Source of the DNA: Candidatus Electrothrix sp. GW3-4 | GTDB taxonomy: Bacteria > Desulfobacterota > Desulfobulbia > Desulfobulbales > Desulfobulbaceae | DNA length: 32,000 nucleotides | NCBI RefSeq assembly: GCF_037902255.1 | Contig: NZ_CP147990.1 | Location: 3,870,001-3,902,000 of the forward strand | Direction: 5' to 3' | Shown here: positions 7,260-26,746 of the stretch, in pieces | How positions within the stretch are numbered: position 1 is the first letter of the stretch | Layout of the letters: each line of letters begins with the position of its first letter | Notes under the pieces: generated by a model | What the model was told of the DNA's origin: nothing | The model's input: the letters and a program-made list of their open reading frames with translations, nothing else | The model's database searches: none | Translations under genes and position numbers: made by a program

Positions 7260-7304
7260 CCTCCCACAACACAACTTCATGACCATACAATAAACAAGTT
7301 ATTG

Positions 7305-9080: not shown

Positions 9081-9107
9081 CCAACCATTGCACCAAACTA
9101 TTACACG

Positions 9108-9145
9108 CGCTCTTGGGCTGCTGGCCCAAGAGCGTTCCTCTTTCT
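9108..9145 (+). terminator. Rho-independent terminator of htrA
   Basis: 11-bp perfect stem CGCTCTTGGGC (9108-9118) / GCCCAAGAGCG (9124-9134) with a 5-nt loop, followed by a T-rich tract (TTCCTCTTTCTC). It begins 28 nt after the htrA stop. Confidence 0.65.
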
Positions 9146-9159
9146 CATTGCCATTTTTT

Positions 9160-9561: not shown

Positions 9562-10646
9562 CCGCAGTATGCGGACAGGCAGCCTCCTTTTTTCTCCCCC
9601 ACGAAAAAATCGCCTCCATAGAACCGCTGGGCGGGGGGATTGTCAACGATACCTGGCGCCTCACGCTTTCATCTGGGCAAAAATATATCCTTCAGCGGCT
9701 CAACCCATCAGTCTTCTCTGACCCTATTGCGGTTCAAGATAACCTGCGCAAGGTTACCAAGCATATCCACAGCCAGCTTCCAGCAGTACCTCAGTTACAT
9801 GGTCGTGACTTTACCCTGTTCCGCCCTGTTACCAATGAGGCGGGAGCAATAAGCTACCAGGACAACAAGGGCGCTTATTGGCGCCTGCTTACCCATATTG
9901 ATCATGCCCGCCCCCTGGATTCGATCTCCACGTCCAGCCAGGCCGAGGAGATCGGAGCCACCCTTGGCCTGTTTCACCAGCTCCTTGCCACCCTGCCCCT
10001 GGATTCTCTCACAGACCCGTTACCCGGTTTTCACAACACGCCGCTCTATCTTGCCCAATATGATCGGGTGCGCTTTGCTCCTCAAAATCCTGAGGTCGAG
10101 GATTGTCGACGTTTTATTGAGCAGCACCGGCAAGACGCCTTTCTTCTGGAGAATGCCCGCAAACATGGGAGCATAGGCCAACAGGTCATTCATGCTGACC
10201 CTAAAGTGGCCAATTTCCTCTTCTCCGCAGATAAAAAAAAGGCCATCAGCCTCATTGACCTGGATACAGTGAAACCCGGCCTCCTGCTCCACGATATCGG
10301 CGACTGCCTCCGCTCTTGCTGCAATCCCCTTGGGGAAGAGGTGGTGCACCCGGAGGAAATTCTCTTTCGGACCGATTTTTTTAGCGCTGCCGTGAACGGG
10401 TACCTGGAGACCGCTGCCGACCTGCTCAACTCTGGGGACAAGCGCCTCCTGATCGACAGTGTTTGGCTGATCAGCTTTGAGCTCGGCCTTCGTTTTTATA
10501 GCGATTATCTCGTCAATAACTGTTACTTTAAGATTGATTATCCAGAACAGAATCTCTTCCGGGCCCGAGTGCAGTTTGCCCTCGCGCGATCTATCAAACA
10601 GCAACATGACAGGCTATACGCATTGATCCAGCAGACCTCCCTGTAA
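9558..10646 (+). CDS. Phosphotransferase of the APH/choline-kinase fold (aminoglycoside phosphotransferase family; N-acetylhexosamine-1-kinase-like)
   Basis: 362-aa ORF. It has a Gly-rich N-terminal loop (IEPLGGGIVNDTWRL), a catalytic-loop motif (VIHADPKVANFLF) and a metal-binding motif (SLIDLDTVKPGLLLHDIGD), which I recall resembles NahK-type sugar kinases. The TTG start overlaps the mazG-like stop (TTGA). Confidence 0.75.
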   Translation: MTAVCGQAASFFLPHEKIASIEPLGGGIVNDTWRLTLSSGQKYILQRLNPSVFSDPIAVQDNLRKVTKHIHSQLPAVPQLHGRDFTLFRPVTNEAGAISYQDNKGAYWRLLTHIDHARPLDSISTSSQAEEIGATLGLFHQLLATLPLDSLTDPLPGFHNTPLYLAQYDRVRFAPQNPEVEDCRRFIEQHRQDAFLLENARKHGSIGQQVIHADPKVANFLFSADKKKAISLIDLDTVKPGLLLHDIGDCLRSCCNPLGEEVVHPEEILFRTDFFSAAVNGYLETAADLLNSGDKRLLIDSVWLISFELGLRFYSDYLVNNCYFKIDYPEQNLFRARVQFALARSIKQQHDRLYALIQQTSL

Positions 10647-10742
10647 CTGAAAAGACGCAACATTCTTTATGAGTTAAACGGGCGCATCAAACCTGTTCGT
10701 CCACTGCGCATGAAAGACAAAAAGACGTACAAAAGGAAAAAG

Positions 10743-11609
10743 ATGAAGAAAGGAATACAACAACATAATGGACTAAAAACTGGCATATCAATCTTCTCTC
10801 TTCTTGTCGTGCTGTTAGCTGGTGGCCTCCTGGTGCTCTTGGGTATATTCGGCACAAATCCAAACACCCCAGCTGGACACGAAGGATATGTTTATGAGAA
10901 GCCGAGAATATTCGGCAAAGGCGGCTTTCGTGGAGAACTCAAAGGGCCCTCAAATTACGGTATCTCGTTATGGAGGAACGAGGTCATGAATGTTGATTTC
11001 CGACCCAAGACCTATCCGGAAAATTTCAAGATCCTGGCCAAGGACGAGCTGAACATATCCTTCCGTTTTCAATCGATCATTAAAGTGAAGCCGGGAACCA
11101 TCAGGACGGTTGTGGAGGATTACGCAGGCGATGCCTTTTATGAGCGCTATATCAAGGAGCCACTCAGGGCAATGGTACGCAAGCATGTTCAATATCTCAA
11201 AAGTCGTGAGATCAAGGAAAAACGAAAAGAGATAGCTGCGGCCGTGTCCACCGATCTTCAGGAACATCTCAAAGGAACACCCTTTATCCTGGTCTCCAGC
11301 GTTGTCGGTAATATCGATTACCCCCCTGTCGTTACCCAGGCCGTTGAAAAAAAACTGGCTGCCCAACAGCTGCTTGATGAAAAAGAGACCCAGCGGGAAA
11401 TCGCCAAAAAGGATGCTGAAATCCGCATCGAAGAGGCCAAGGGTATTGCCGAAGCGCAGAAGATTATCAATACGACCCTGACCCAGAACTATCTGCAACA
11501 CGAAGCCATTCAGGCGCAACTCAAGATGGCCTCTTCACCGAACCATACCACGGTATATATTCCGGCCGGGGCCAACGGGATACCGTTAATTGGCACGGTC
11601 AATAAATGA
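10743..11609 (+). CDS. SPFH/band-7 (prohibitin-like) domain membrane protein
   Basis: It has an N-terminal TM helix (ISIFSLLVVLLAGGLLVLLGIFG). An SPFH core follows (ILAKDELNISFRFQSIIKVKPG...AMVRKHVQYLKSREI), then a coiled-coil tail (QREIAKKDAEIRIEEAKGIAEAQKII). I prefer the start at 10743 (AGGA 5 nt upstream). The ORF-track start at 10710 adds 11 residues. Confidence 0.82.
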   Translation: MKKGIQQHNGLKTGISIFSLLVVLLAGGLLVLLGIFGTNPNTPAGHEGYVYEKPRIFGKGGFRGELKGPSNYGISLWRNEVMNVDFRPKTYPENFKILAKDELNISFRFQSIIKVKPGTIRTVVEDYAGDAFYERYIKEPLRAMVRKHVQYLKSREIKEKRKEIAAAVSTDLQEHLKGTPFILVSSVVGNIDYPPVVTQAVEKKLAAQQLLDEKETQREIAKKDAEIRIEEAKGIAEAQKIINTTLTQNYLQHEAIQAQLKMASSPNHTTVYIPAGANGIPLIGTVNK

Positions 11610-11707
11610 TGTCTTCTCCACAAAGAGATAGCCCTGCCCTCTGACATGAGCATCACAAGGCAACTAAATTTTACCTACACCACAAACCAGAACGACCCAA
11701 AAGTATC

Positions 11708-12130
11708 ATGAAAATAGCAGATGGAAAAACCGTTACCATTGACTACACCCTGAGCCTGAAAAACGGCGATATCATAGAAACCACCAAGGACGACGAACCT
11801 GTCACCTATGTCCAAGGCTCTGGTGAGGTTATTGAGGGACTGGAACAGGCAGTTGCAGGTCTGGAGAACGGCACGAAAAAAGATATTATTCTGCCGGTCG
11901 CCCATGCCTTTGGTGCGCACGATCCCGAGGCCCTGCTTGCAATCCCGAAAACAGATCTCCCGCCGGAATCGCTTGTTCCAGAAACCATCCTTCACGCCAA
12001 CGGCCCTAAGGGACAGACCATTAACGGAAAGGTGGTAGAGGTAAAGGAGGACACGGTTATCGTGGACTTCAATCATCCCCTGGCAGGACAAGAGCTCTAT
12101 TGCGCCGTCCATATTATTGATGTTCAGTAA
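11708..12130 (+). CDS. FKBP-type peptidyl-prolyl cis-trans isomerase (SlyD/SlpA family)
   Basis: 140-aa ORF with a typical SlyD/SlpA layout: MKIADGKTVTIDYTL...GSGEVIEGLEQAVAGLENG...AFGAHDPE...VIVDFNHPLAGQELYCAVHIIDV. It lacks a His-rich metal-binding tail. Confidence 0.88.
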   Translation: MKIADGKTVTIDYTLSLKNGDIIETTKDDEPVTYVQGSGEVIEGLEQAVAGLENGTKKDIILPVAHAFGAHDPEALLAIPKTDLPPESLVPETILHANGPKGQTINGKVVEVKEDTVIVDFNHPLAGQELYCAVHIIDVQ

Positions 12131-12246
12131 CTCCCATCCCGCCCCAGCGGACCAGGACAACAAAACATGAAAGGTGAAACCCTGGTCTGCTTTGCCCACC
12201 ACTTTCAGAGAAAAGCTAAAAAAAGAGATCAGCAGGAGAAGAGAGC

Positions 12247-12951
12247 ATGACTGAACAGCTAATAAAGAAAAAAGGGGTCTCCTTACAACAGGTCTTGTTG
12301 ATTGTTGCAGGGGCAATGGTCGTAACCGTCCTGCTCACCTTCTTTGCAATCAAGACCTGGCTTTTCCCTGCACCGTTTACACCAGTGGAGCTGAATCAAC
12401 AGGAAGAACAACGCTTGGAGCAAAAGCTCAGCCGCTTTGATGTCGTTGCAGCCCCTGCCGCAGCAACAACTGCACGTACACGCTCCTTTACTCCTCAGCC
12501 CGGGGATTATGATGAGCAGGGGGCCTTAAAGCCGGAACGCTATTCTGAAGAGGGGGCAAACCGAGAGATCACCTTCACAGAACGCGAGCTGAACGGGCTC
12601 TTGGCCAATAATACGGATCTGGCCCAAAAGATGGCAATAGATCTGGATACCGATGTGGTGAGCCTGCGTCTTTTGATCCCGATTGACCCTGATTTCCCGA
12701 TAATGGGCGGTAAGATCCTCCGGGTTCGAGCCGGGGCAGAACTCGCCTATCGCGAGAATAAACCCGTCGTGATCCTCAAAGGGGTTTCAGTGATGGGGGT
12801 TCCGATCCCCAATGCCTGGCTGGGCGGGCTGAAGAATATTGATCTTATGCAGGAGTTTGGTGGTGAACCAGGCTTCTGGCAGAGCTTAGGAGAAGGGGTG
12901 GAAAGCATTCAGGTCCAGAAAGGTGAACTCTACGTCAAACTGAAGGAGTGA
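12247..12951 (+). CDS. Hypothetical membrane-anchored (N-terminal TM) protein, probably periplasm-facing
   Basis: 234-aa ORF with AGGAG 9 nt upstream of the ATG. It has a single N-terminal TM helix (VLLIVAGAMVVTVLLTFFAI) followed by a soluble domain. I recognise no family. Confidence 0.6.
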   Translation: MTEQLIKKKGVSLQQVLLIVAGAMVVTVLLTFFAIKTWLFPAPFTPVELNQQEEQRLEQKLSRFDVVAAPAAATTARTRSFTPQPGDYDEQGALKPERYSEEGANREITFTERELNGLLANNTDLAQKMAIDLDTDVVSLRLLIPIDPDFPIMGGKILRVRAGAELAYRENKPVVILKGVSVMGVPIPNAWLGGLKNIDLMQEFGGEPGFWQSLGEGVESIQVQKGELYVKLKE

Positions 12952-12970
12952 GAGAAAAGAGGGCTGTCGA

Positions 12971-15193
12971 CTATCTGCTTGAATCCAAAAGCTGCCGGTT
13001 TGCCGTTACCAGGCGTTCGGCAATGACTCGCAGCATCAGATTCTGGATAGATTCAGCCAAGAGAGGTTCTTCTCGTTGAATGGCCTGCATAGAACTTTTT
13101 GTGAGTCGGTACACAACAGTATTCTTGTCAGCAACAATCGTTGCTGTCCGGGGAATATTGAGGCAATACCCCACTTCACCGACCATCGTGCCGATACAGA
13201 TTGTTTGCAGACGAACCGGATGCTGGTTACCGGTCTGAAGATAGATTGAAATCTGCCCTGATTCAACGAAATACAGCGAATCTGAGGCCTCTCCCTGCCG
13301 TACCAGGAGTTCTTTTGCATTGAGGGTGGACTTTTGCAGATAGGATTTCAACAGGCGTATCTGTTCCCTTTGAAAACCTTTTGCAAGCAGTTGCAAGGGT
13401 AAGGCAAGACTTTCCTGCGCCCCCCCGCTGTGGGGTTCCAGCAAGGCATCTTCACACCAAGACAGGGCCCTGTCCAGGTCCGAAGCAAATCTCAGGGACT
13501 TTTCGTTCGGTCGAATCCCATTATACACCATCTGTTGCTTTAACTGGGGCGATAACGAGCTCAGTATAACTGTAAAACCGAATGAATCAGCGAGATACAG
13601 AATACGGGTGAAACAGAAGGCAGCCGAAGAATCCACCCCTGTCACCCGCCGAAAATCGATAATCAGGTACTGTAGAGGGAGCGTTGCTCGGAGCCGGGAT
13701 TGCAGTTCACTGAGAATAGCATTGGCGGTGCCAAAAAAAATAAATCCATGCAGTTCAAGAACGTGGGTGTGCCACCCCAGCCTGACCAATTGCTTACGCT
13801 CGCGTGACGAACGCAAGACATTGCTGGTGAGCTCTGCGCCAGAGAGTTTACGGTAAAAGATATCTGTCCGGCTATAGCTGATCACAAAGGTAAACATCAT
13901 AACGACAAAGCCCAGGACGATGCCGGTCATAAAGTTTGTCACCATGATCGTCAAGCCGATAATGGTAATCATCCCATAATCAACCAGTGGAAGCGCACTC
14001 CATTTCTTTATCAGCCAATTATAGAGGAAGGTGATCCCCTGAAAGACGAGCAGGCCACCTAACACCGCTTTGGGAACGAAAAAGAGCAGAGGCCGTCCAA
14101 AGAAGAGGATCACCAGGGGCATTATCCCGGCAATAAGACCTAAGGTCCGTGTTCGGGCCACGGTCATGTCTCGCCCCAATGAGGTGGTCCCTAACGAATG
14201 AAAGCCTATCATACCACCAGCCAATGCCGACAGAATATTGGTTTTACCTGCGGCCTCAAGTTCATGGTTCAGGTCCATATCTTTCCGCTCGCTCATCTCG
14301 ATCCCACTGAGGTTCAACAAAAGGCTGATTGGAGTAATAATGAGAACCGCGCCGATATTGTCCAGCTGCCCTTGGAGTATATCCCAGCGGGCAGAGAAGA
14401 AATGTTTTGGATTAATAAAAGGCCAGCCAGATGCTAAATCCATATCTCCGAGCAGCAGCCCGGCATCAGCCGCATTTTGGATATTGCTGTCACTAGCAAT
14501 CAACAAGAGATAAAAGAGTATTGCCTCGGCAAGGAGCAGGCCTGGCAAGGCTAAACTATGTTGGATGCGCCGGGTACCGATAAAGAGGAGAAGGCCAAAC
14601 AGGACACCGGGGAGCCAGAGTTCCATCTCGCTGCCAGTGAATAATCTCACCAAATTTTTTGCGCTGAGATTATAGTCCACCATGGTTCCTATGCCACCAA
14701 GGAGCAGCATAATGCCGGTACCGGCCATAAAACCACCAATGACAGGATAGGGGAGATAGCGCACCAGGATGCCCAATTTAAACTTTCCCAACAGGATCAG
14801 AATCACCCCATTAAGGAGCGTTGTCAGGGCGATGAGAACAAAAATCGTAGACATAGCCGCATCTGGCGTGGTCAGGGTGGCTGTGATGGCAGAGATCGAT
14901 GTTGCCATAACAACCAGAGGACTATCCTGCAGGCCAGCTATCACCCCTCTGTTCCCCGAAAAAAAACTCACACTGAGGGCAGTGACCGATACCGTAACCA
15001 AGGCCATAACGATCCCTCTCGGGAGCTCTGCGGCCAGCGGACCAACAAAAATAAGGCTGGTGAGTGAGACAGAAAAAATACTCAGGAGGGTGCCGAGAAG
15101 TACGCCTGCCGTGATTGTTGATAACCAAGCCGGGGACTGCGTTCGAATACCGACTCTTTCGGTTTTTGTTTCTTTTAATGGTACCGATGGCAT
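12971..15193 (-). CDS. SulP/SLC26 family anion transporter fused to STAS and cyclic-nucleotide-binding (CAP_ED) domains
   Basis: 740-aa ORF. Roughly the first 450 aa are polytopic membrane sequence with SulP character. A STAS-like region follows (LELHGFIFFGTANAIL...YLIIDFRRVTGVDSSAA). The C-terminal cNMP-binding fold is LVRQGEASDSLYFVESGQISIYL...GTMVGEVGYCLNIPRTATIVA. Confidence 0.85.
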   Translation of the reverse strand: MPSVPLKETKTERVGIRTQSPAWLSTITAGVLLGTLLSIFSVSLTSLIFVGPLAAELPRGIVMALVTVSVTALSVSFFSGNRGVIAGLQDSPLVVMATSISAITATLTTPDAAMSTIFVLIALTTLLNGVILILLGKFKLGILVRYLPYPVIGGFMAGTGIMLLLGGIGTMVDYNLSAKNLVRLFTGSEMELWLPGVLFGLLLFIGTRRIQHSLALPGLLLAEAILFYLLLIASDSNIQNAADAGLLLGDMDLASGWPFINPKHFFSARWDILQGQLDNIGAVLIITPISLLLNLSGIEMSERKDMDLNHELEAAGKTNILSALAGGMIGFHSLGTTSLGRDMTVARTRTLGLIAGIMPLVILFFGRPLLFFVPKAVLGGLLVFQGITFLYNWLIKKWSALPLVDYGMITIIGLTIMVTNFMTGIVLGFVVMMFTFVISYSRTDIFYRKLSGAELTSNVLRSSRERKQLVRLGWHTHVLELHGFIFFGTANAILSELQSRLRATLPLQYLIIDFRRVTGVDSSAAFCFTRILYLADSFGFTVILSSLSPQLKQQMVYNGIRPNEKSLRFASDLDRALSWCEDALLEPHSGGAQESLALPLQLLAKGFQREQIRLLKSYLQKSTLNAKELLVRQGEASDSLYFVESGQISIYLQTGNQHPVRLQTICIGTMVGEVGYCLNIPRTATIVADKNTVVYRLTKSSMQAIQREEPLLAESIQNLMLRVIAERLVTANRQLLDSSR

Positions 15194-15361
15194 AGTATTT
15201 TAATAGATCCTGCTGCAACTGTTAGTGAGTCTCTGCGGCAGGACATTCAGGACAGCTGCGGTGAATGTTGCGGCGCTCTCTGGGGGGAGGGTCAGGAAAA
15301 AAATTTGCTCGTTCTTTGCTGGCAATGCCTGCCTAACAAAAAAATCCTATAGAGAGCCTTT

Positions 15362-16384
15362 TCAGTTTGATGTAGTAGAAATTTTTTTGCGCAAAAGATT
15401 TTTTACTGAAGTCGTGTCGTCAGGACTCTCCTGCCGGGCCTTTTTCAGATCTTGAATAGCGTCGGAGACACATTTGTATTGTTCCCAGCCCGCGAGCTTG
15501 GCGTCCAGATCAACATGCTCCCATTTCGCATGTCCGTTTTTCTTCAACCACCCTTCATTTTTATAGATAATCCGTGCAACCTCTCCGACATCTTTACAAT
15601 TCTGGTGATTTTCGTCATAATTATAGCTCATGAGAACAGCCTTTACCGCAAAGGTATTGATGGGCTCTTTTTGCCAGTTATATGTTCCGGCAGGAATGAT
15701 GGACGGCACATAATGCTCAGCGATACGTTGGTTTGTTATGGAGAGAAGGTGAAGATTTTCGGTGTAGATACCTGAAAAAAGACTTACAGGGTATCCAGAA
15801 ATATAAATCATCGCGTCAATAACCTCTGAGCGAAGCAGCATGAGGGCTTTCTTAGGATCCCCATACTTTGTTTCACGTGGAGTAACGCCTGCGACTTCAA
15901 AAAGAAGAGAAGCGGTCAGCGCTGTACCACTCCCTTCGGAGCCGATGGCAACGATTTTTCCTTCCAAGTCAGCAAAGGACTTGATAGAACGAGAGGCCAA
16001 GATATGGACCTCTTCATTGTACAGCGGAAAAATCATTTTGATCTGCTTGGCTATCTTATTCAGCTCACTATCACCGGAAGAGTGAATAGAGGCCAAAACA
16101 TCAGACTGAACAATACCCATCTGAAGATCTTTGCGTTCATAAACATCCGCAATATTATCTAAGGAGCCATTGGAAGGGTAAACATTCAGATAGATGCCCT
16201 CCTGCTTAACCAACCTGGAGATATCGTATCCGATTTGGATATACGTTCCCTTTGTCCCCCCAGTGACAATACCCATCTCAGTTGCTGCGAATGTCGGAGA
16301 GACCAGAGAAACAACATAGACAAAAAAGGCGACAGGAGCTAAGAACGTATATGATCGTAATGAGTTCATGTGTTTTTGCACCAT
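15362..16384 (-). CDS. TAXI-family TRAP-type solute-binding protein (periplasmic), with no membrane partner in the window
   Basis: 340-aa ORF with a signal peptide (FLAPVAFFVYVVSLVSPTFAA). TAXI hallmarks are present: IVTGGTKGTYIQIGYDISRLV, NGSLDNIADV, LQMGIVQSDV, LYNEEVHILASRSIKSFADLEGKIVAIGSEGSGT. The start may be Met6 (16369). Confidence 0.8.
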   Translation of the reverse strand: MVQKHMNSLRSYTFLAPVAFFVYVVSLVSPTFAATEMGIVTGGTKGTYIQIGYDISRLVKQEGIYLNVYPSNGSLDNIADVYERKDLQMGIVQSDVLASIHSSGDSELNKIAKQIKMIFPLYNEEVHILASRSIKSFADLEGKIVAIGSEGSGTALTASLLFEVAGVTPRETKYGDPKKALMLLRSEVIDAMIYISGYPVSLFSGIYTENLHLLSITNQRIAEHYVPSIIPAGTYNWQKEPINTFAVKAVLMSYNYDENHQNCKDVGEVARIIYKNEGWLKKNGHAKWEHVDLDAKLAGWEQYKCVSDAIQDLKKARQESPDDTTSVKNLLRKKISTTSN

Positions 16385-16697
16385 TAAAATAGTTTTTTCG
16401 TCAGATACGAGGTACTGACGTGCAATCTGGAATTACCTGCTGGAAGAACATAGGACGCCAACTTGGCAAGAATACGTGATGCTACCCGTTATAGCTAGTT
16501 TAACCAACTGTCGTTATAAGTCAATAAAATAACGTGCCATGTCAAAAAAAAGAACGCATAAAATCGCCTCTCTCTTACAGGAAAGCATTACCTTTATGTG
16601 GTACATATTTTTTATACATTACAAAGCAGGATATGTCTATTTTTCTTTCTCTCTAATCGTTCGTTAGCAATGAGCCGCAGTGTGCACCACAACGGCC

Positions 16698-18176
16698 TCA
16701 GTCTTCTAATAATTGGTAAATTATCGGCATCTGTTCACGAATCCTTTGCAATGTCAGGGCATCAATTGTTCCGCCAGTCATGGGAATGCGCCTGACATAT
16801 TCCTGCAACCTTCCGGGAACTCTCCCGTACTTGTACGAATAAGGGAATTTCCCCGTATTATCGATGACGTTATTCCTGTTGTCAGGGTTAGGCACACTGA
16901 TATATAGTTCACTTTCCGAAAGTTTGTTACCTGTTGCAAACAACTGTTTTTCCCTTATGTACTTATACAGCTCAACAGCTGTATTTTGCGCAGGATCAAT
17001 CAGCGTTATATCTTCCTCCATATAGGGTTTATACCTGTATTCCCCATCCGCTGATCGATATTGATACAGTTCATCAAGAATCTGATGGATCTCCTGTTCC
17101 AGGTAAGGATAATGGGTGCATCCTAAAATCAGTACCTTCAATTTATTCTGCGTGTTGGAAGCGGAAGCTCTCACTTTCTCCAGCAGAGAAACAAGATGAA
17201 ATCGCATATAATTAACAGGATCATTGATCTGCATTGCAGAGCAGTCTGACGCATCATTGCTGCCACAGAGCATCTTCGAGTCGGAGAAATCAAAGTGATA
17301 CATGTCCAGCAGCGACGTTCTGATCCCATCTTCTGCTTCCGCAGCAGGCCCCTTGTAGTTTTGGTTCCAACCGACAGCGTGAGCATCATAGTAATCTTTA
17401 TCTCCATCGATAGCTTCGGCGATGCCCGTTCCTCCCTGCGCAACAACTTCTATCTCGGCGTCTACCTGTTCCTCCTTGGCTATTTCCCTGAGAGCCTTTT
17501 CATATCCGCCTGAGCTCACAGTCCCTGCTGTTGCCAGTAAGCCTATTATTCCCCCATCAGCATTTGTAAAATGCTCCAGGGCTGCCCTTGCTCCTGCATC
17601 AATGACACCGATGACCTTGATGTTCAATCCTGTCTTGTCCATCAATAACTTAATCTTTTCCGTACCGTATGCCGTGGCGGTATTGCAGGCTATAACGATT
17701 GATTTTACAGGCAGTTTATCAGCTTTATAGGTGGTGGACTGTGCATCGGGGTAGTACCTGTTTGAGAGCAGGAACTGCACATCTTTGATAATATGTTCTT
17801 CCAGCAGAACATCCTTGCTCTCTTTATGGTAATTCCCATAGGGCATATTGGCGAGATCGCCGAGATATATAAATTTTTCCCCTTCAAAGTCGTTTGCATG
17901 ATCGCCCCCGACAGTGTGGTGGATATTGTCAAACTCATCAAGATTGATAATGGAGTTAAAGACAGTCAACCCCCCTGTCCCGGAGTCGAAGATACCTATA
18001 GGTAATTTTTCTCTCTTTTTCGGATAATGTTCAACATCTATATAGAAGTAGTTATCCTTTTGGGCCAGCATGATCTGAATAATATCTTCAATGGGTTTAT
18101 TCCCTGTTCGGACATGAACAGGAACGCATCCAAGAAAGGCTGACAAAAAAAGAAGGAGCAATATTTTGTAGAGCAT
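16698..18176 (-). CDS. Asp/Glu racemase superfamily protein, MurI (glutamate racemase)-like, with signal peptide/probable lipobox and large insertions
   Basis: 492-aa ORF carrying all four MurI signature blocks in order: IGIFDSGTGGLTV (res 60-72), YLGDLANMPYG (104-114), IACNTATA (Cys164) and LGCTHYP (Cys353). The N-terminus MLYKILLLLFLSAFLGC looks like a signal peptide with a lipobox-like FLGC (Cys17). Confidence 0.75.
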   Translation of the reverse strand: MLYKILLLLFLSAFLGCVPVHVRTGNKPIEDIIQIMLAQKDNYFYIDVEHYPKKREKLPIGIFDSGTGGLTVFNSIINLDEFDNIHHTVGGDHANDFEGEKFIYLGDLANMPYGNYHKESKDVLLEEHIIKDVQFLLSNRYYPDAQSTTYKADKLPVKSIVIACNTATAYGTEKIKLLMDKTGLNIKVIGVIDAGARAALEHFTNADGGIIGLLATAGTVSSGGYEKALREIAKEEQVDAEIEVVAQGGTGIAEAIDGDKDYYDAHAVGWNQNYKGPAAEAEDGIRTSLLDMYHFDFSDSKMLCGSNDASDCSAMQINDPVNYMRFHLVSLLEKVRASASNTQNKLKVLILGCTHYPYLEQEIHQILDELYQYRSADGEYRYKPYMEEDITLIDPAQNTAVELYKYIREKQLFATGNKLSESELYISVPNPDNRNNVIDNTGKFPYSYKYGRVPGRLQEYVRRIPMTGGTIDALTLQRIREQMPIIYQLLED

Positions 18177-18403
18177 AGCAACGGTGTCAGAAGTTTTATT
18201 TGACGTGGTTCTGTAACCAACAGCTTCAGGGACAGACCACAGGTGACAAAAATCAACACATGCGGGAGTTTTTTCCGCCCGCAGCCAGATGACAAGTTTT
18301 GCTTTCCTTGTTTTCCAGCCTCAGCACTCTCTCTTGCTTTGATATAGTAAACCTGACAGCATCAGTCCAGATTATTTTGAGAAAATTTCCTTCCTTCCTC
18401 CCT

Positions 18404-20413
18404 TCAAAGATCTCCCTGAAGCCCTTTCAGCACCACATCGACCTCTTTTTTAAACTGAGCCTGCTGCGAAGCTGTCAGACCATTCTTGCCGAATCGCTCC
18501 TGATAGTACAGGTGTAGGCAGAACTGGAGGCTATCAAAGGGCATCTCCAGAGAGGCTGCTGTCTGCATACGGCGAATCCAGCTGAGTGGGGGCTCCCATG
18601 GGTTTCGTTCAAAGCCCAGCTCGTGGAGGCGCTGCTCAATTCGGTCAAACGGGGAATTATGATGCTGCCCCTGTTCCGTTTGTTTACTGGTATCCATTCG
18701 CACTCGTCGAATCCTCTTCCCTGCCTGGAGTCTTCTGGCAAGGATGATCACCAGCGGAACAAGAAGGAGCCACCACCATTTTTTTACTATGCCCTCCTCT
18801 GTGCCCCAGCGCCATTGAGCAAATTTAAAGAGCATCAATGACCAGAGATCTTGAAAAAAAAGCAGGCTGGATGAAGCTGCTGCATCTTCTTCCTCGACCC
18901 AGGAAGAAGAAGTGGTATCCAGATTATGCCATAGACCATCCTGGTATACCAGGGTCCAGGCATGGGCATGGCGACTCCGAATAACAATCTGATCGCCCAA
19001 CCTGCTCGGTTCATGGGCGGACCAGCCCGTTGCATAGCGAGCCGGAATGCCGCAGGCCCGGAGAATAAGGACCGTCGCTGTAGCAAAGTATTCGCAATAA
19101 CCGCTACGGGAGGAGAGCAAAAAGGATGCTAAAGAGGTTCTCCCCTGTTCAGCAGCACGCAGTTTTAGAGAATACCTGAACTGGTTCTGGAAAAAATCAG
19201 CAAGCACTTGAATAACGTCTTCGGGCGTTTTTGCTTGAAGATCCAGCTCATCAATAACTTGCTGGATCGCTGGTAACTCTTCCTGAGGAACGATGAGGTC
19301 TTTTTCTGTTGGGGCCAAGTCCTTGGACGCAGCCTCATTATACTGCACCTGATAGCCGATCAGGCCGGGACCGTCTTCAACTTGAACGGCCCCCAGAGGC
19401 GTCTGTTTCAAGAGTAATACAGGAAGATTGGCTAATTGATAGGTCCCCAGAGGTAAGGTAAGCATCCCTTTCTCATGCTCCAATGGACTCCACACCGTCA
19501 ATGAGCTACCGCTTCCCGGATCATCGTGCAGGTTCCAGGTCGTTTGGTCTTGCTCAGAGGTGACATTGGCGAACTGCGCAGGTGAGGCGTGCCAGCTTGT
19601 ACCGCGATACAGGTTATAGCTTGATTCCCGCAACAGGACGGGACGAAACGGATTATCACCAGGTGTCACCCGGAACATGATCTGATTAGAGAGCTTGAGT
19701 TCCCCGAGATCACCTATTGCTGTGGTTCGTTTAAAGGGATCGCTGTTTCTGGCCAGCCACCAATGACTGACCATCCGCATGGCCATCCTTTGGAGATGGT
19801 AGACCCCGAAATGACCAGCATAGCCTGCTCCTGCTATAAGGGCAAAAAGGAAGATCCACAAAAACGGGGAAAAACGCCTGGAGCGCTGCGGCCAAAGGGC
19901 CCAGGCGGTAAAGAGGAGTAAGCCGATAAAAAAGCTCCCGTCTTTCATATTACCTGTCCCGGCTGCCAGCAGGCATAGGGCGGCATAGGGAGGGGCTATA
20001 TCTATGGTTCTCGGCTGGTTATCTACTGCCACCACTCTGTTACGGGCAAACAGCAGCAGGGACCTCAGGTCGATCTTACTGGCAATGCTGTACTGCTGGG
20101 CAGCAAGGAGAGGGAAGCAGATGGCGGGCAACCATTTAAGGAGCTTCAACGCCGCCTTGAGGAAATCGGTTGTAAAAAGAAAAAGGGCCAAGCCAGCCAA
20201 CAGGATGGTGCAGATGTCCGTGATCCGATTGAAATCAGCTAGAGAAAGCGCCCATTTGCTTTTGATGTATCTCGAGCCTTCAAGAAACAGAGCCATAGGA
20301 AGCGCTAAGGAGAGAAGGCCGGTCTGCCAGCCCCAGAAGAGGAGGATTACACCAGCAAAGAAGGGTGGAAGCGACATAAGGCTATTGGTTTTCTTCAGAT
20401 GATCCTGCATCAC
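18404..20413 (-). CDS. Transglutaminase-like (TgpA-type) polytopic membrane protein
   Basis: 669-aa ORF with a multi-TM N-terminal region. The periplasmic or cytoplasmic domain carries a transglutaminase/cysteine-protease core (SGYCEYFATATVLILRACGIPARYATGW...HAWTLVY). A further TM helix and a C-terminal tail follow. Confidence 0.85.
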   Translation of the reverse strand: MMQDHLKKTNSLMSLPPFFAGVILLFWGWQTGLLSLALPMALFLEGSRYIKSKWALSLADFNRITDICTILLAGLALFLFTTDFLKAALKLLKWLPAICFPLLAAQQYSIASKIDLRSLLLFARNRVVAVDNQPRTIDIAPPYAALCLLAAGTGNMKDGSFFIGLLLFTAWALWPQRSRRFSPFLWIFLFALIAGAGYAGHFGVYHLQRMAMRMVSHWWLARNSDPFKRTTAIGDLGELKLSNQIMFRVTPGDNPFRPVLLRESSYNLYRGTSWHASPAQFANVTSEQDQTTWNLHDDPGSGSSLTVWSPLEHEKGMLTLPLGTYQLANLPVLLLKQTPLGAVQVEDGPGLIGYQVQYNEAASKDLAPTEKDLIVPQEELPAIQQVIDELDLQAKTPEDVIQVLADFFQNQFRYSLKLRAAEQGRTSLASFLLSSRSGYCEYFATATVLILRACGIPARYATGWSAHEPSRLGDQIVIRSRHAHAWTLVYQDGLWHNLDTTSSSWVEEEDAAASSSLLFFQDLWSLMLFKFAQWRWGTEEGIVKKWWWLLLVPLVIILARRLQAGKRIRRVRMDTSKQTEQGQHHNSPFDRIEQRLHELGFERNPWEPPLSWIRRMQTAASLEMPFDSLQFCLHLYYQERFGKNGLTASQQAQFKKEVDVVLKGLQGDL

Positions 20414-20609
20414 TCTTTTGTTGTTTGATCTCGTTAAGATTACTTCGGATCAACTCAAATCATGGGTTTGCAGCCTGTTTCAAGGAGAGCTAGAGCCAGC
20501 CTTTGCTTCCCTGCAAAGAGGGTATGATTGATCCAGAGCAGATACTGAGAAGAGAGGCTCGAACGTAGATTCGAGATAAAGTCGAACCTCGCTACAAGAC
20601 AGAACAAGC

Positions 20610-21956
20610 TCACAAGCCCGTCACCCCTTCTTCCATCTTATCCGCAGCCAACACATGAAAATTCTCCGGCTCATCTTGCATCGGACCCGCACCTCCCACC
20701 GCCTCCACCTGCTCCGTGACCACAATAACCTTCAGCGGTACGCCCACCCCTCGCAGCATCCTGACCATCTCCTGCCGCTCTTTATCCCAGGCAAGCAGGA
20801 TACAGATACACCCACTGACCCGCGAGGCATGGCTGGTCAACAGAGAAGATAATTCAGAAAAGGGTCTGTCATGACAGGGCTGGACGCAGGCCAGGACCTC
20901 CATCATGCTGTCCGTATGGGACACCCCCCGACCTGAGGAAAAACAATAGGCCCTATTGCCAACAAACATCAGGTCCAGCAGGGATTCCTGGGTCTCCACC
21001 GTACTGACAAAGGAGGCAGCCAGCGAGACCGCCTCTTCAAAGGTCTGGCTATAGGCCTGCTCCTGAAAGGTATCCAGCACCAGACCATGGCGGACAAAGA
21101 ACTCATCCTGATAATTCTTCACGATCAACCTGCCAGTCTTGGCCCAACTCTTCCAGTGAATCCGGCGCAGAGGATCGCCGGATCGGTAATCCCGCAGGGA
21201 GACAAATTCATCCGAGTTACCCACGGACGAGGCCAGGGCAACCCCACCAGGCTGGTGACGGCGCGAACCGGGAAGATCCACCTCCGGTAATCGATAGCGC
21301 TTGGGCAACACCAGGACCCGCTGGTAGCAAGGGAAAAAACGACAGCCCTTAAAGAGACCAAAGGGATCGGGCCGGGACAAGATGATACCGGTCAGTTCCA
21401 GGTAGCCCCGATGTAAGGGGAGAATTTCGACCCGAACCTGTTCTCTGCCATGAGGCGGAAGGTTCGGCAGGGCTTGTTCCTTGCCCTTGGCCTGCCGATG
21501 CTGAGCAACCAACCACATCCAGCGATAGACCATCGTCCACCTGTCCCAGGCATTTCGACTCTCTTCTTCCGGTTCCCGGGTCTGGAGAAATTCGTCATAT
21601 GTGGGACGGGGATCGCCAAATTGTTCGGAGAGAAAAAGCCCTCTCTGCTGTCTTGCCGAATGATTATAAAGCCAAAGGGCATAGGTCAGGGGCTCCCCTG
21701 CCAGGGCAAACTTCGGTAACCTTCGCTGAACAGTGATGCGAACCCGGAAAAAGAGACTGAAAAGGAGGGCAACCAAGAGTAAGGGCACAGCAAGGGCAAA
21801 AACCTGATAGACCGTGCTGCGCCAGGGATTCATCCCCAGGGCAGAAGAAATGACGAGGACAGTCAGCACCAGCAGCCCTGCCGGGGTAAAGCGCTGTTTT
21901 CGCCAGCTGCTTATCCCGTCAAAAAGCCTGTAGGAGAGGTAGAAAAAATATCGCAT
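20610..21956 (-). CDS. DUF58 domain-containing protein (MoxR-associated)
   Basis: 448-aa ORF with two N-terminal TM helices and the DUF58 signature (GNSDEFVSLRDYRSGDPLRRIHWKSWAKTGRLIVKNYQDE). It begins 12 nt after the MoxR gene. Confidence 0.85.
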   Translation of the reverse strand: MRYFFYLSYRLFDGISSWRKQRFTPAGLLVLTVLVISSALGMNPWRSTVYQVFALAVPLLLVALLFSLFFRVRITVQRRLPKFALAGEPLTYALWLYNHSARQQRGLFLSEQFGDPRPTYDEFLQTREPEEESRNAWDRWTMVYRWMWLVAQHRQAKGKEQALPNLPPHGREQVRVEILPLHRGYLELTGIILSRPDPFGLFKGCRFFPCYQRVLVLPKRYRLPEVDLPGSRRHQPGGVALASSVGNSDEFVSLRDYRSGDPLRRIHWKSWAKTGRLIVKNYQDEFFVRHGLVLDTFQEQAYSQTFEEAVSLAASFVSTVETQESLLDLMFVGNRAYCFSSGRGVSHTDSMMEVLACVQPCHDRPFSELSSLLTSHASRVSGCICILLAWDKERQEMVRMLRGVGVPLKVIVVTEQVEAVGGAGPMQDEPENFHVLAADKMEEGVTGL

Positions 21957-21968
21957 ACGACCTGCCTG

Positions 21969-22913
21969 CTATGCGGGAACCGGGACCGTTTCCACGATTT
22001 CTTCAACAATTCCCTGGGCAGTCTGGCCGGAAAAGCGGGCCTGGGGATCAAGCACGAGCCGGTGGGCGATCACCGGGACCGCGATCTCCTGAATATGATC
22101 CGGGGTGACAAAGTCCTGACCGTCGAACAGGGCCAGGGCACGGGCCGTTTGGATCAGGGCAAGAGAGGCCCTGGGACTTGCTCCCAGCACCAGACCGGGA
22201 AAAGAGCGGGTGGCATGGACCAGCTGAACAATATAGTGCTTGAGCTCCTCGCTGATATGGACGGCATGGACCTGCTTTTTGACCCGCAGGATATCCGCTG
22301 CTGTTGCGCAGGCTGAGATATCCTCAATGGGATGCCTGCCTGCCTGATTGGAGAGCACAGCGACCTCGTCTTCCACACTGACATAACCGAGGCTGAACTG
22401 GAGGGCAAAACGATCCATCTGGGCTTCAGGCAGGGGATAGGTACCCCGTGATTCCACCGGGTTCTGGGTGGCAATGACAAAGAAGAGATCTTCAAGCCGG
22501 TAATTGCTCCCATCAATACTCACCTGTTTCTCTGCCATTGCCTCCAGCAGGGCAGACTGGGTACGGGGCGAGGCCCTGTTGATCTCATCTGCCAGCAGGA
22601 TATTGGTAAAGACCGGCCCCCTGTGGAGACGAAACGCCTTGTCCTTGGGATCAAAGATGGACACACCAAGGATATCCGAGGGAAGGAGGTCCGGGGTGAA
22701 CTGGAGGCGGGTGAACTGGGTCTTGATGGAGAGGGCCAGGGTCTTGGCCAGGGTTGTCTTGCCGGTGCCGGGATAATCTTCCAGCAGGATATGTCCTCCT
22801 CCGGCAAAACCGGCCAGCAGGAGGCGGATGGAATCTGCCTGCCCCTTCATGACCTGCCCGATATTGGCTGCAACTCTATGCAGGATTGCAGCTGTGGTCT
22901 TATTGTCCGTCAT
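21969..22913 (-). CDS. MoxR-family AAA+ ATPase
   Basis: 314-aa ORF with Walker A (LLEDYPGTGKTTLAKTLA) and Walker B (ILLADEINRASPRTQSALLEAM). It has the typical MoxR length and C-terminal lid (GASPRASLALIQTARALALFDGQDFVTPDHI). Confidence 0.92.
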   Translation of the reverse strand: MTDNKTTAAILHRVAANIGQVMKGQADSIRLLLAGFAGGGHILLEDYPGTGKTTLAKTLALSIKTQFTRLQFTPDLLPSDILGVSIFDPKDKAFRLHRGPVFTNILLADEINRASPRTQSALLEAMAEKQVSIDGSNYRLEDLFFVIATQNPVESRGTYPLPEAQMDRFALQFSLGYVSVEDEVAVLSNQAGRHPIEDISACATAADILRVKKQVHAVHISEELKHYIVQLVHATRSFPGLVLGASPRASLALIQTARALALFDGQDFVTPDHIQEIAVPVIAHRLVLDPQARFSGQTAQGIVEEIVETVPVPA

Positions 22914-23400: not shown

Positions 23401-24420
23401 ATGAAGAAATATTCGATCGGCAGCATAACCACTCTGTTGCTCATGCTGTTTGCGATCCCAATAATAGCAGGAACCCTGGATGAAGTACAAAAACGCGGGA
23501 GCTTGGCGTGCGGTGTCTCCACTGGCCTGCCGGGATTTTCCGCAACCGATGAAAAGGGCAACTGGAAAGGCCTGGATGTTGATGGCTGTCGGGCCATTGC
23601 TGCTGCTGTTCTTGGTGATGCAAGCAAGGTGAAGTATGTCGCTCTGAATGCTAAAGAGCGTTTTACCGCCCTCCAGTCTGGAGAGATTGATGTGCTGGTG
23701 CGCGGGACCACCTGGACCAAACATCGTGACACCGCACTCGGTTTAAACTTTGCCGGGGTCAATTATTATGACGGGCAAGGTTTTATGGTGCTCAAGAAGC
23801 TTGGCGTCACATCAGCAAAAGAACTTGACGGCGCGATTTTCTGCATTCATGCCGGAACCACAACTGAGCTGAACTTGGCTGATTATTTCTCCAAAAACGG
23901 CATGGAATACGACGCAATAGTCTTTGATACCCATGATCAGGCTGTCAGAGGATTTGAGGTCGGACGCTGTGACTGCCTGACCTCTGATCAATCGCAACTC
24001 TATGCCCTGCGCACCCAGCTGAGTAAGCCGTATAGTGCTGTCATTTTGAATGAGGTTATCTCCAAGGAGCCCTTGGGCCCGGTTGTCCGTCAAGGGGATG
24101 ATGCCTGGTTTAATGTGGTGCGCTGGTCTTTTTTCGCCATGCTCAACGCCGAAGAATTGCGGGTGACATCCGCCAATGTCGACGCAATGAGGAGAACCTC
24201 TGTTAATCCTGCTGTTCGCCGTCTTCTGGGCCTGGATGGTGATAAGGGCCAGAGCCTGGGGCTGCCGGACGACTGGAGTTACCAGATCATCAAACAGATC
24301 GGCAATTACTCCGAAGTCTTTGAACGCAATGTGGGTAAAGGCTCTGCCTTAAGGATCAAACGCGGACTGAACGCCTTATGGAAGGACGGGGGCATCCAGT
24401 TTGCTCCACCCATGCGCTGA
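23401..24420 (+). CDS. aapJ: General L-amino-acid ABC transporter, periplasmic substrate-binding protein (AapJ/BztA family)
   Basis: 339-aa ORF with AGGAG 5 nt upstream and a signal peptide (TLLLMLFAIPIIAG). Family-3 SBP motifs are present (LACGVSTGLPGFS, GEIDVLVRGTTWT, NYYDGQGFMV). It is followed by two long permeases and an ATPase in the Aap/Bzt order. Confidence 0.85.
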   Translation: MKKYSIGSITTLLLMLFAIPIIAGTLDEVQKRGSLACGVSTGLPGFSATDEKGNWKGLDVDGCRAIAAAVLGDASKVKYVALNAKERFTALQSGEIDVLVRGTTWTKHRDTALGLNFAGVNYYDGQGFMVLKKLGVTSAKELDGAIFCIHAGTTTELNLADYFSKNGMEYDAIVFDTHDQAVRGFEVGRCDCLTSDQSQLYALRTQLSKPYSAVILNEVISKEPLGPVVRQGDDAWFNVVRWSFFAMLNAEELRVTSANVDAMRRTSVNPAVRRLLGLDGDKGQSLGLPDDWSYQIIKQIGNYSEVFERNVGKGSALRIKRGLNALWKDGGIQFAPPMR

Positions 24421-25598
24421 CAGTGATAAGTAAAACGGAAGACATAACCCGATGGTGGAACCAAGGGCGAAATAGGATCTTACTCTTTCAGATCCTTCTG
24501 ATGCTGGGCACGGTACTGTTTTTTCTTCTGATCGGAGCCAACGCCCTCAAAAACCTGGAACAACAGGGAATAACCAGCGGATTTGCTTTTCTCTCCCAAA
24601 AAGCCGGATTCAGCATCATTCAGACCCTGATTTCCTATTCCGAATCCAGCACCTACGGCAGAACCTTTCTGGTCGGTCTGCTCAACACCATGCTGGTTTC
24701 TGTTTTAGGGATTATCTGCGCAACCGTCCTCGGCTTTCTTATTGGAATCGCCAGACTCTCTTCCAACTGGCTGATTGCCAAATTAGCAGCAATCTATATT
24801 GAAATTTTCCGCAACCTCCCCCTTCTCCTGCAAGTCTTTTTCTGGTATTTTGCCGTCCTTCGCTCCCTTCCCCTTCCCCGCAATAGCCTGCATTTCGGAG
24901 ACTGGTTCTTTTTGAATATTCGAGGGATCTATATCCCACGCCCGCTTCCTGGCCAAGGACTGACGGCCCTGATTATTGTTTTCGGGGTAAGTATTGCGGC
25001 GATTTATGCGTTGAAAATATGGGCACGAAAACATCAAGAGAAGACAGGGAAAGAACCACCAACCTTGCTCATTTCCCTGGCAATACTCATTATACCATCC
25101 ACCATTACCTGGTTTTCCAGCGGCGAACCTCTGCAATGGGAACTTCCGGCTTTGAAAGGATTGAACTTTAAAGGAGGCTTAACTGTTATTCCAGAGCTTG
25201 CCGCCCTCCTCTTTGCCCTGACCATATATACAGCCAGTCTTATTGCCGAGATTGTCCGCTCTGGCATCCTGTCGGTCAGCCATTGCCAGACAGAGGCAGC
25301 CCGTGCCTTGGGCCTACCGCACAGGAAGATCCTGCGGCTGGTGGTTATCCCCCAGGCTATGCGCGTGATGATCCCGCAGATGACCAGTCAATATCTCAAT
25401 CTGGTCAAAAACTCTTCCCTGGCCACCGCCATTGGCTATCCTGATCTGGTCTCGGTTTTTGCAGGAACAAGCCTCAACCAGACCGGTCAGGCCATTGAGA
25501 TCATTGCTATGACCATGGCTGTTTACCTCACCATTAATCTGACCATCTCCTGGTTAATGAACCGCTATAATGAGCGAATCCTATTACAGGAACAGTAA
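24378..25598 (+). CDS. aapQ: Amino-acid ABC transporter permease (AapQ/BztB type)
   Basis: A polytopic membrane ORF with an HisM/GlnP-type EAA loop region (EIVRSGILSVSHCQTEAARALGL...VVIPQAMRVMIPQ). The start is uncertain. ATG 24378 overlaps aapJ by 43 nt, and an in-frame GTG at 24423 begins 3 nt after the aapJ stop. Confidence 0.85.
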   Translation: MEGRGHPVCSTHALTVISKTEDITRWWNQGRNRILLFQILLMLGTVLFFLLIGANALKNLEQQGITSGFAFLSQKAGFSIIQTLISYSESSTYGRTFLVGLLNTMLVSVLGIICATVLGFLIGIARLSSNWLIAKLAAIYIEIFRNLPLLLQVFFWYFAVLRSLPLPRNSLHFGDWFFLNIRGIYIPRPLPGQGLTALIIVFGVSIAAIYALKIWARKHQEKTGKEPPTLLISLAILIIPSTITWFSSGEPLQWELPALKGLNFKGGLTVIPELAALLFALTIYTASLIAEIVRSGILSVSHCQTEAARALGLPHRKILRLVVIPQAMRVMIPQMTSQYLNLVKNSSLATAIGYPDLVSVFAGTSLNQTGQAIEIIAMTMAVYLTINLTISWLMNRYNERILLQEQ

Positions 25599-25611
25599 GT
25601 AGGGAAATCTT

Positions 25612-26706: not shown

Positions 26707-26746
26707 GAACAAAGAGCCAGAGCCTGATCTCCTCACCGACAAAATT

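Follow-up and report, generated by a model that had tools for sequence, protein, structure and literature searches.

Why should a cable bacterium carry a gene for a MurI-type glutamate racemase which begins with a signal peptide and is almost twice as long as the usual enzyme? The gene is found in a stretch of 32,000 nucleotides (nt) from the genome of Candidatus Electrothrix sp. GW3-4 (contig NZ_CP147990.1, positions 3,870,001 to 3,902,000), which we shall call the window. It codes for a member of a family of long racemases, a family which is widespread and uncharacterised, though already present in the databases as glutamate racemase. On balance, we favour the view that its product is a lipoprotein derived from MurI, acting as an extracytoplasmic, cofactor-independent glutamate racemase which would salvage D-glutamate.

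The open reading frame (ORF) was located at exactly 16698..18176, with 492 amino acids, in a preliminary description made from the sequence alone. We find it there, on the minus strand, which had not been stated; the plus strand of this interval is interrupted by many stop codons. All the motifs quoted in that description are present at the residue positions it gave, and the two catalytic cysteines, C164 and C353, are indeed 189 residues apart. The features of the gene are the following:

16698..18176, minus strand: whole ORF, 492 amino acids plus stop, ATG start; long MurI-type racemase, predicted to be exported
18126..18176, minus strand: predicted signal peptide MLYKILLLLFLSAFLG plus lipobox Cys17 (lipobox rule, family-wide signal peptides, frame kept in Electrothrix Rat3)
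18006..18104, minus strand: family-specific N-terminal helix region (residues 25-57), absent from canonical MurI and from a short Chitinophagales subclade
17970..17990, minus strand: FDSGTGG motif, residues 63-69 (D64, S65), substrate loop of the MurI N-lobe; conserved in 79/79 family members and aligned with MurI
17877..17945, minus strand: insertion 1 (residues 78-100), a gap in the alignment with MurI, found family-wide
17829..17867, minus strand: YLGDLANMPYGNY motif, residues 104-116 (P112, Y113, G114)
17706..17768, minus strand: insertion 2 (residues 137-157), from the gap with MurI and the family alignment
17676..17690, minus strand: ACNTA motif, residues 163-167, with catalytic Cys164; conserved in 79/79
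17217..17405, minus strand: insertion 3 (residues ~258-320), mostly coil with one short helix; invariant Y274, G276, P277 and N318
17241..17267, minus strand: CGSNDASDC loop, residues 304-312; C304/C312 putative disulfide, from co-occurrence in 79 sequences
17106..17123, minus strand: GCTHYP motif, residues 352-357, with catalytic Cys353, T354 and H355; conserved in 79/79
17013..17063, minus strand: insertion 4 (residues 372-388), invariant Y382, from profile and family alignments
16701..16886, minus strand: C-terminal extension (residues 431-492), with a nearly invariant YKYGR (K449, Y450, R452); canonical MurI ends at about residue 429

The MurI core and its additional segments

The significant matches of the protein in the PDB are all glutamate racemases, both in a single-sequence phmmer search (E 7e-18) and with a profile of the family (E 3e-23). 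Pfam only finds the Asp/Glu/hydantoin racemase domain PF01177 (42.3 bits, with a threshold of 31), limited to residues 154-243; no alanine-racemase domain appears among the Pfam matches of the ORF. The NCBIfam equivalogs for glutamate racemase (TIGR00067 / PRK00865) align in two pieces, and their curated cut-offs are not reached: TIGR00067 gives 98.3 bits (cut-off 146.65), NF002035 gives 98.8 (328) and NF002034 gives 47.4 (408). These low scores agree with the earlier claim that this is not a canonical MurI. Its length had also been described as nearly double, and it is: 492 amino acids, as compared to 254-293 in the matching MurI chains of solved structure.

An AlphaFold2 model, based on an alignment of 58 sequences, has a mean pLDDT of 87.3 and a pTM of 0.87. 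When this model is compared to the PDB with Foldseek, the top 46 matches are all MurI/RacE; the lowest E value is 1e-16, and the highest TM, when normalised on the target, is 0.78. Next in rank are aspartate and hydantoin racemases. The comparison with MurI, which had been suggested as a check, points to the presence of the two-lobe alpha/beta fold of this enzyme in the predicted structure. All the structural neighbours found by Foldseek are MurI, aspartate racemases or hydantoin racemases, and the fold of racemases dependent on pyridoxal phosphate (PLP) is not among them. The approximately 230 extra residues match no known domain in this search of the PDB, which only returns MurI-like racemases. 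The core of the protein is that of MurI, yet the whole protein is not an ordinary MurI.

We have placed the additional segments by means of the gaps in the MurI alignment, combined with the predicted secondary structure. The surplus of about 230 residues is made up of residues 1-57, 78-100, 137-157, ~258-320, 372-388 and 431-492; the first of these segments includes the signal peptide, a linker and the N-terminal helix. The preliminary description had explained the extra length by one insertion of about 80 amino acids and a C-terminal extension of about 110. Both exist, with other sizes: The insertion (258-320) and the extension (431-492) have about 60 amino acids each. The size of the extension follows from a profile alignment to the MurI of F. 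tularensis, which puts the end of the canonical MurI fold near residue 429. The surplus is not confined to these two segments, there being four insertions and an N-terminal helix too.

Conservation was counted in 79 family members derived from genomes of several phyla. D64, S65, P112, G114, C164, N165, T166, T216, T219, C353, T354 and H355 are conserved in all of them, and Y113 in 78. In MurI complexes with D-glutamate, the DSG, PYG, CNT, T..T and CTH positions are those which enclose free glutamate. Glutamate is, in our opinion, the likely substrate.

The alignment of these 79 sequences is free of gaps in the insertions, across phyla, and the family-specific segments contain several invariant or nearly invariant residues: Y274, G276, P277, N318, Y323, Y382, K449, Y450 and R452. 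The insertions are ancient parts of the enzyme, maintained by selection. The cysteines of insertion 3 follow a simple rule: 40 sequences have C304 as well as C312, the other 39 have neither, and in no sequence is one found singly. Such a pattern is as expected of a structural disulfide, putative in this case, which is typical of extracytoplasmic proteins.

Signal peptide and start codon

The N-terminus fits a lipobox rule of the PROSITE type, with K4 followed by LLLFLS-AF-L-G-C17. FLGC ends at C17, and the motif stretch of the signal peptide is MLYKILLLLFLSAFLGC. We take the rule (PS51257-type) to be as follows: K or R in residues 1-7, an uncharged hydrophobic stretch, [LIVMFWSTAG]2-[LIVMFYSTAGCQ]-[AGS]-C, and the Cys at positions 15-35.

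Signal peptides are found throughout the family. Of the 120 best database homologues, 118 have one at their start, and the two exceptions are entries whose start was called at Met36. A lipobox Cys is present in most of these homologues, and an A-Q site similar to those of signal peptidase I (SPase I) in a few. The signal peptides of the genome-derived members were judged by a crude hydropathy threshold and by inspection: The threshold is passed by 76 of the 79, while the remaining three visibly have a signal. A lipobox-like Cys is present in about 45 of the 79, the others resemble SPase I sites. Export looks like a trait of the family.

The start codon deserves attention. Two public gene calls, P0001 (100% identity) and P0003 (87%), start at an internal methionine, Met36, and the signal is cut off. 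The gene calls of relatives at 86% and 79% identity include the signal peptide. In Electrothrix Rat3, MMFSRILLLLYLPIFLGCVFLGCVPP... is encoded in frame ahead of the annotated start, and an in-frame duplication of 15 nt in the lipobox (L001, 9876-10002) produces a tandem FLGCVFLGCV. Residues 25-57 are conserved across the family alignment. We have judged the start codon from this comparative evidence because no convincing Shine-Dalgarno sequence is found before either Met1 or Met36. A true start at a downstream methionine had been named as an outcome which would invalidate the export prediction; a start at Met36 is contradicted by the Rat3 frame, by the calls in relatives and by the conservation of residues 25-57. 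A signal peptide ending at Cys17, as originally predicted, agrees with the lipobox rule and with the presence of signals family-wide, and the gene product is very probably exported from the cytoplasm.

Family, gene fusions and neighbourhoods

A word-indexed search of 5.8 billion proteins gives thousands of matches. The closest relatives are found in Candidatus Electrothrix (87% identity) and in metagenomes (86%, 79% and 62%). They are followed by a dense set from Flavobacteriia, with 500-515 amino acids and about 50% identity, which are called "glutamate racemase" or "Asp/Glu/hydantoin racemase" where they have a name. Family members have approximately 450-520 amino acids. A HMMER scan of 1.84 billion cluster representatives detects 148 at E ≤ 1e-30, fragments included, as compared to 2840 at E ≤ 1e-3, therefore the members of the long family form a compact cluster, well separated from canonical MurI. 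When one genome per species is scanned, at least 584 species carry the family, mostly Bacteroidota. Among the matches listed we find all the classes of Bacteroidota, together with Ignavibacteriota, Marinimicrobia, Planctomycetota, Acidobacteriota and Latescibacterota. No dedicated curated model in NCBIfam or Pfam covers the long family, and no solved structure of a member is present among the PDB matches. Full-text searches of the literature gave no account of a MurI-type racemase which is exported; among the indexed papers, none contains the phrase "periplasmic glutamate racemase".

A Chitinophagales-like subclade (loci L035, L039, L040, L047, L050, L057, L060, L061, L063 and L064) has shorter proteins, of about 450-470 amino acids, without the N-terminal helix after the signal peptide. 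Their signals are of the SPase I type, and their Cys loop has a different spacing (LLCEYDDKGSC).

Fusions to other domains were collected from the Pfam annotation of long family members and from two genomic loci. The racemase is followed by a GltS Na+/glutamate symporter in P0145 (939 amino acids), by a domain similar to D-glutamate cyclase in P0132, and by an S11 DD-carboxypeptidase in P0184, whose racemase is a variant without insertion 3. It is preceded by an Amidohydro_3 domain in P0167. PF00144 serine hydrolase modules are found in both orders, C-terminal in P0123, L017 and L022, N-terminal in P0124; their nearest relatives are Pab87, Flp, alkaline D-peptidase and DD-carboxypeptidase. All these fusions are continuous ORFs which retain the racemase motifs. 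Four of the fusion proteins have clear signal peptides, the start of P0184 is short, hydrophobic and possibly truncated.

The GltS fusion is not an artefact, since its cluster at 90% identity has 27 members and full-length copies are present on dozens of contigs from three sources. Fusions of TAXI proteins to GltS are known, in which the binding domain is extracytoplasmic and N-terminal to GltS (PMC12344293). P0145 has the same architecture, which by analogy would place its racemase module outside the membrane. Upstream of the P0145 gene, on the same strand, are a Peptidase_C26 (gamma-glutamyl hydrolase family), a C69 dipeptidase and an Ntn-hydrolase; a 2-oxoacid:ferredoxin oxidoreductase is found downstream, and lipoprotein genes of the type seen in polysaccharide utilisation loci (PUL) lie further upstream.

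Other combinations were also seen. P0149, P0140, P0230 and P0242 include a GH5 cellulase::racemase, a racemase::glutamine-amidotransferase-like protein, a MatE::racemase and a racemase protein of 1008 amino acids whose C-terminal half is unannotated. Loci L017 and L022 (~6200-12900) contain a second PF00144 protein, a class-A-like Beta-lactamase2, a PLP enzyme of Cys/Met metabolism, FecR and SusC/SusD. Each of them thus has three hydrolase modules of the penicillin-binding protein/beta-lactamase type.

The neighbours of the racemase in 80 loci were clustered and then annotated with Pfam. A single conserved operon for the whole family was considered and rejected: Neighbourhoods are lineage-specific, and four types may be distinguished, namely PUL, Bacteroidales housekeeping, Planctomycete/Chitinophagales and cable-bacterium TAXI.

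In Flavobacteriia, Cytophagia and Sphingobacteriia the racemase belongs to SusC/SusD loci, some of them with an extracytoplasmic function (ECF) sigma factor and FecR. An Amidohydro_3 gene (about 520 amino acids) is present in nine loci. In seven of them it immediately precedes the racemase on its strand, with gaps of 4-134 nt, and in the other two it is found nearby. The nearest relatives of its product are D-aminoacylase 1m7j (E 3e-53), PpOngB (E 8e-52) and N-acyl-D-glutamate deacylase 3gip (E 3e-44). Seven further loci have PF00144 proteins, nearest to D-aminopeptidase and AmpH. Both types of partner begin with signal peptides. We should also mention L021 (Pedobacter sp., 8441-13122), where genes of the D-aminoacylase type with signal peptides are found on both sides of the racemase, with gaps of 4 and 3 nt.

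In gut Bacteroidales, an AIRS-like gene, a 3'-5' exonuclease and a methyltransferase accompany the racemase in a conserved block. Eight of these loci have an S13 DD-carboxypeptidase within a few kb, and a type III glutamine synthetase is nearby. We regard this context as uninformative, or as synteny only. Planctomycetes and some Chitinophagales have GFO_IDH_MocA oxidoreductases, exported by the twin-arginine (TAT) pathway, adjoining the racemase. No canonical short murI is found in the 32-kb window or in the 84 loci examined, a result which is silent on the rest of the genomes.

In cable bacteria the constant neighbour is a solute-binding protein of the TAXI family: It adjoins the racemase in all three cable-bacterium contigs examined (the window, Rat3 and L085). 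The genes around the racemase in the window are the following:

15362..16384, minus strand: TAXI-family solute-binding protein with signal peptide, downstream of the racemase (TIGR02122, 140 bits, cut-off 84)
12971..15193, minus strand: SulP-STAS-cNMP secondary transporter, downstream of the TAXI gene, also present in Rat3
18404-22913, minus strand: operon immediately upstream of the racemase, coding for a MoxR AAA+ ATPase, a DUF58 protein and a transglutaminase-like membrane protein which contains DUF4129
23401-27514, plus strand: polar amino-acid ATP-binding cassette (ABC) importer, with two permeases of unusual length (406 and 364 amino acids) and a GlnQ-like ATPase
2535-6531, minus strand: glnD (PII uridylyltransferase) and glnA (type I glutamine synthetase), adjacent, with an overlap of 23 nt

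The neighbour-joining tree places the window and Electrothrix Rat3 proteins in one long branch, beside the clade of Flavobacteriia, Cytophagia and Sphingobacteriia. The racemase (44.1%) and the TAXI gene (43.9%) have the two lowest GC contents in the window, other genes have 47-59%. Tree position and low GC are consistent with horizontal acquisition by cable bacteria. The shared low GC also suggests that both genes may have been acquired jointly, as a two-gene module.

In the PDB, the TAXI protein is nearest to 1us4, whose deposited name is "putative GluR0 ligand binding core", and to 8s4j, with E values of about 1e-15. We propose this protein as the receptor for the product of the racemase. 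No TRAP membrane component is found near the TAXI gene of the window, and the SulP transporter is, tentatively, a possible membrane partner. The arrangement of TAXI directly upstream of SulP, without TRAP genes, is seen both in the window (12971-16384, minus strand) and in Rat3 (L001, 11651-15040). By analogy with TAXI-GltS, one might speculate that this pair is another secondary transporter dependent on a solute-binding protein.

The MoxR-DUF58-transglutaminase operon was rejected as a functional partner: It is absent upstream of the racemase in Rat3, and of its genes L085 has just the transglutaminase-like one. The gene sizes of the ABC importer resemble those of the Aap/Bzt-type systems for general or acidic amino acids. 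The linkage of glnA, glnD and this importer to the racemase is not conserved. A glutamine synthetase gene is present in the window and, near the long racemase, in gut Bacteroidales, which may be a coincidence. Two overlapping candidate ORFs on opposite strands (213 and 234 amino acids) occupy 11675-12951 and have no Pfam match. A scan for promoters and terminators in 15100-18500 gave counts not above those of shuffled sequence.

Proposed function and known systems

How would such an enzyme work? The precursor would be exported by Sec and lipidated at Cys17, with the mature enzyme (approximately residues 18-492) facing the periplasm. C164 and C353 would be the opposed acid/base pair in the two-base mechanism of MurI, acting on free glutamate. 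The probable role of the N-terminal helix, the insertions and the YKYGR extension is to make the enzyme stable outside the cell, or else to shape the way into its pocket. Its substrate would be D-glutamate freed outside the cytoplasm from D-amino-acid or gamma-glutamyl peptides, for example the stem peptides of peptidoglycan. Conversion to L-glutamate would be followed by uptake through L-selective binding proteins or transporters. The steps before the racemase may be, in Bacteroidota, import by SusC/SusD followed by hydrolysis by the exported D-aminoacylase-like and D-peptidase-like enzymes. In cable bacteria, the step after it would fall to the adjacent TAXI protein.

The preliminary description had suggested that D-glutamate might be generated or scavenged outside the cell. 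This idea is supported, at the level of predicted proteins, by the fusions to GltS and to cyclase-like, amidohydrolase and D-peptidase-like modules, and by the exported operon partners. Between both directions, we lean slightly towards salvage, from D to L. There are known TAXI proteins whose affinity for L-glutamate is nanomolar and which operate together with a secondary transporter other than TRAP, and the preference of GltS is for L-glutamate over D-glutamate (PMC12344293). In a wider sense, and with somewhat less confidence, we suggest that the family may represent the first recognised extracytoplasmic racemases which are cofactor-independent and thiol-based. They might provide the missing stereo-inversion step in loci dedicated to the uptake of peptides from peptidoglycan and of other D-amino-acid peptides, where the racemase would act after SusC/SusD and after an exported D-peptidase and D-aminoacylase, and before an L-glutamate transporter. 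Such loci would allow the use of D-glutamate from bacterial necromass by Bacteroidota and, via horizontal transfer, by cable bacteria.

Several observations weigh against the salvage of D-glutamate by an exported enzyme. Racemases are reversible, and the direction of the reaction cannot be read from the sequence. Catalysis requires two reduced thiols, and the compartment is an oxidising one. E254, which we take to be the equivalent of the MurI helper glutamate, is conserved in just 57 of the 79 sequences, and Y274, N318, Y323, Y382, K449, Y450 and R452 could reshape the pocket for another or larger substrate. A D-hydrolase partner or fusion is present in just about 14 of the 80 loci, context is heterogeneous, and the neighbours in gut Bacteroidales are apparently cytoplasmic housekeeping genes. 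The lack of a convincing Shine-Dalgarno sequence, mentioned above, belongs here too. We have also rejected the assignment of a ligand to the TAXI protein from its similarity to PDB entries, an E value of about 1e-15 being too weak for this purpose.

An exported racemase might also work mainly from L to D, supplying periplasmic D-glutamate or another D-amino acid for wall remodelling, signalling or an extracellular polymer, as an analogue of the PLP-dependent broad-spectrum racemases. Reversibility would allow it, periplasmic racemases which release D-amino acids are already a known concept, the eight gut Bacteroidales loci have their S13 DD-carboxypeptidase within a few kb, and the cyclase-like fusion could run from L-glutamate through D-glutamate to 5-oxo-D-proline. 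Nevertheless, we find it unlikely: The presence of SusC/SusD, D-aminoacylase-like and D-peptidase-like partners speaks of catabolism, the GltS fusion and the peptidase and 2-oxoacid oxidoreductase genes which flank it point to uptake and breakdown, and the preference of GltS is for L-glutamate. We would give slightly less credit to an exported epimerase or isomerase acting on peptide-bound or N-acylated glutamate (L-Ala-D/L-Glu, gamma-D-Glu-meso-diaminopimelate or N-acyl-glutamate) or on another acidic D-amino acid, with the insertions forming an extended site. The gap-free insertions with their invariant polar and aromatic residues would suit it, fusion to peptidase or amidohydrolase modules could mean substrate channelling, and the Asp/Glu racemase superfamily includes a diketopiperazine isomerase (PMC10156859). 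On the other side, the fusion partners, a glutamate symporter in one case and a D-glutamate-cyclase-like domain in another, imply that glutamate is handled in its free form. The motif positions which enclose free glutamate in MurI are also unchanged.

Two simpler explanations are far less probable. If Met36 were the true start and the supposed signal peptide were untranslated, the protein would be an ordinary cytoplasmic MurI with a mis-called start. P0001 and P0003 do begin at the internal methionine, and there is no clear ribosome-binding site before Met1. We find this very hard to reconcile with an upstream frame which contains no stop and is kept in the Electrothrix relative, where the indel is in frame, with the signals called in the relatives at 86% and 79% and present family-wide, with the position of residues 25-35 inside a conserved segment, with scores under the MurI equivalog cut-offs, and with a co-varying pair of cysteines. 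Least credible of all is a catalytically inactive MurI-like binding protein or pseudoenzyme, for which nothing specific speaks, as both catalytic cysteines and the active-site motifs tested are invariant in 79/79 sequences.

D-glutamate is part of nearly all peptidoglycan, and D-amino acids are recognised in the refractory organic nitrogen of oceans and sediments. To our knowledge, the known routes of D-glutamate utilisation are cytoplasmic. If extracytoplasmic salvage by this family is true, stereo-inversion would precede uptake, which would explain the use of D-glutamate with L-selective binding proteins and symporters. It would also mean that Bacteroidota have utilisation loci of a new kind, directed at peptides, and that a two-thiol racemase can function in the oxidising cell envelope, where the repertoire would extend beyond PLP enzymes. 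Hundreds of database entries labelled glutamate racemase are probably not enzymes of peptidoglycan precursor synthesis, some of them with mis-called starts which hide the signal. Such labels matter when metabolism is reconstructed, and when MurI is discussed as an antibiotic target.

Among known systems, the closest in fold is MurI/RacE (EC 5.1.1.3; B. subtilis RacE 1ZUW, B. anthracis RacE1 2DWU, Aquifex MurI 1B73). The fold and the two-cysteine motifs are shared, as are the DSG, PYG, NT, T..T and TH positions, and from these the chemistry and the amino acid are most probably the same. The differences are the lipobox signal, the N-terminal helix, the four insertions, the extension of about 60 amino acids, the Cys pair of disulfide type, and a gene context which is not that of peptidoglycan synthesis; the work of our protein is predicted to be extracytoplasmic.

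Vibrio BsrV and Pseudomonas putida Alr are likewise exported racemases which act on free periplasmic amino acids, as is predicted here. Racemases of this type are PLP-dependent and have the alanine-racemase fold. Our ORF, by contrast, only has an Asp/Glu-racemase domain and would be cofactor-independent and thiol-based. Periplasmic activity has been demonstrated for P. putida Alr, with a catabolic role (PMC6034422).

The TAXI-GltS system of Bordetella pertussis (BP0403/BP0402; PMC12344293) combines an extracytoplasmic protein with a secondary glutamate transporter and has no TRAP membrane component; a racemase is not mentioned in that paper. The likeness lies in the racemase::GltS fusions of our family, and in the position of the window racemase beside an orphan TAXI solute-binding protein. 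The GltS partner in B. pertussis is a binding protein, not an enzyme, whereas the transporter of the window is of the SulP type, not GltS. The diketopiperazine stereoisomerase of nocardioazine synthesis, in which we saw no sign of export or of the insertions of the long family, belongs to the same superfamily and was also recruited away from the supply of peptidoglycan precursors (PMC10156859). It acts on cyclic dipeptides, in secondary metabolism.

In the recycling of murein peptides by E. coli (MpaA, the L-Ala-D/L-Glu epimerase YcjG and PepD), which is cytoplasmic, the dipeptide is epimerised by an enzyme of the enolase superfamily. The problem to be solved is the same, to make the D-glutamate of peptidoglycan stem peptides usable. 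The solution would be different: Here, a MurI-type enzyme would racemise free glutamate, and it would do so outside the cytoplasm.

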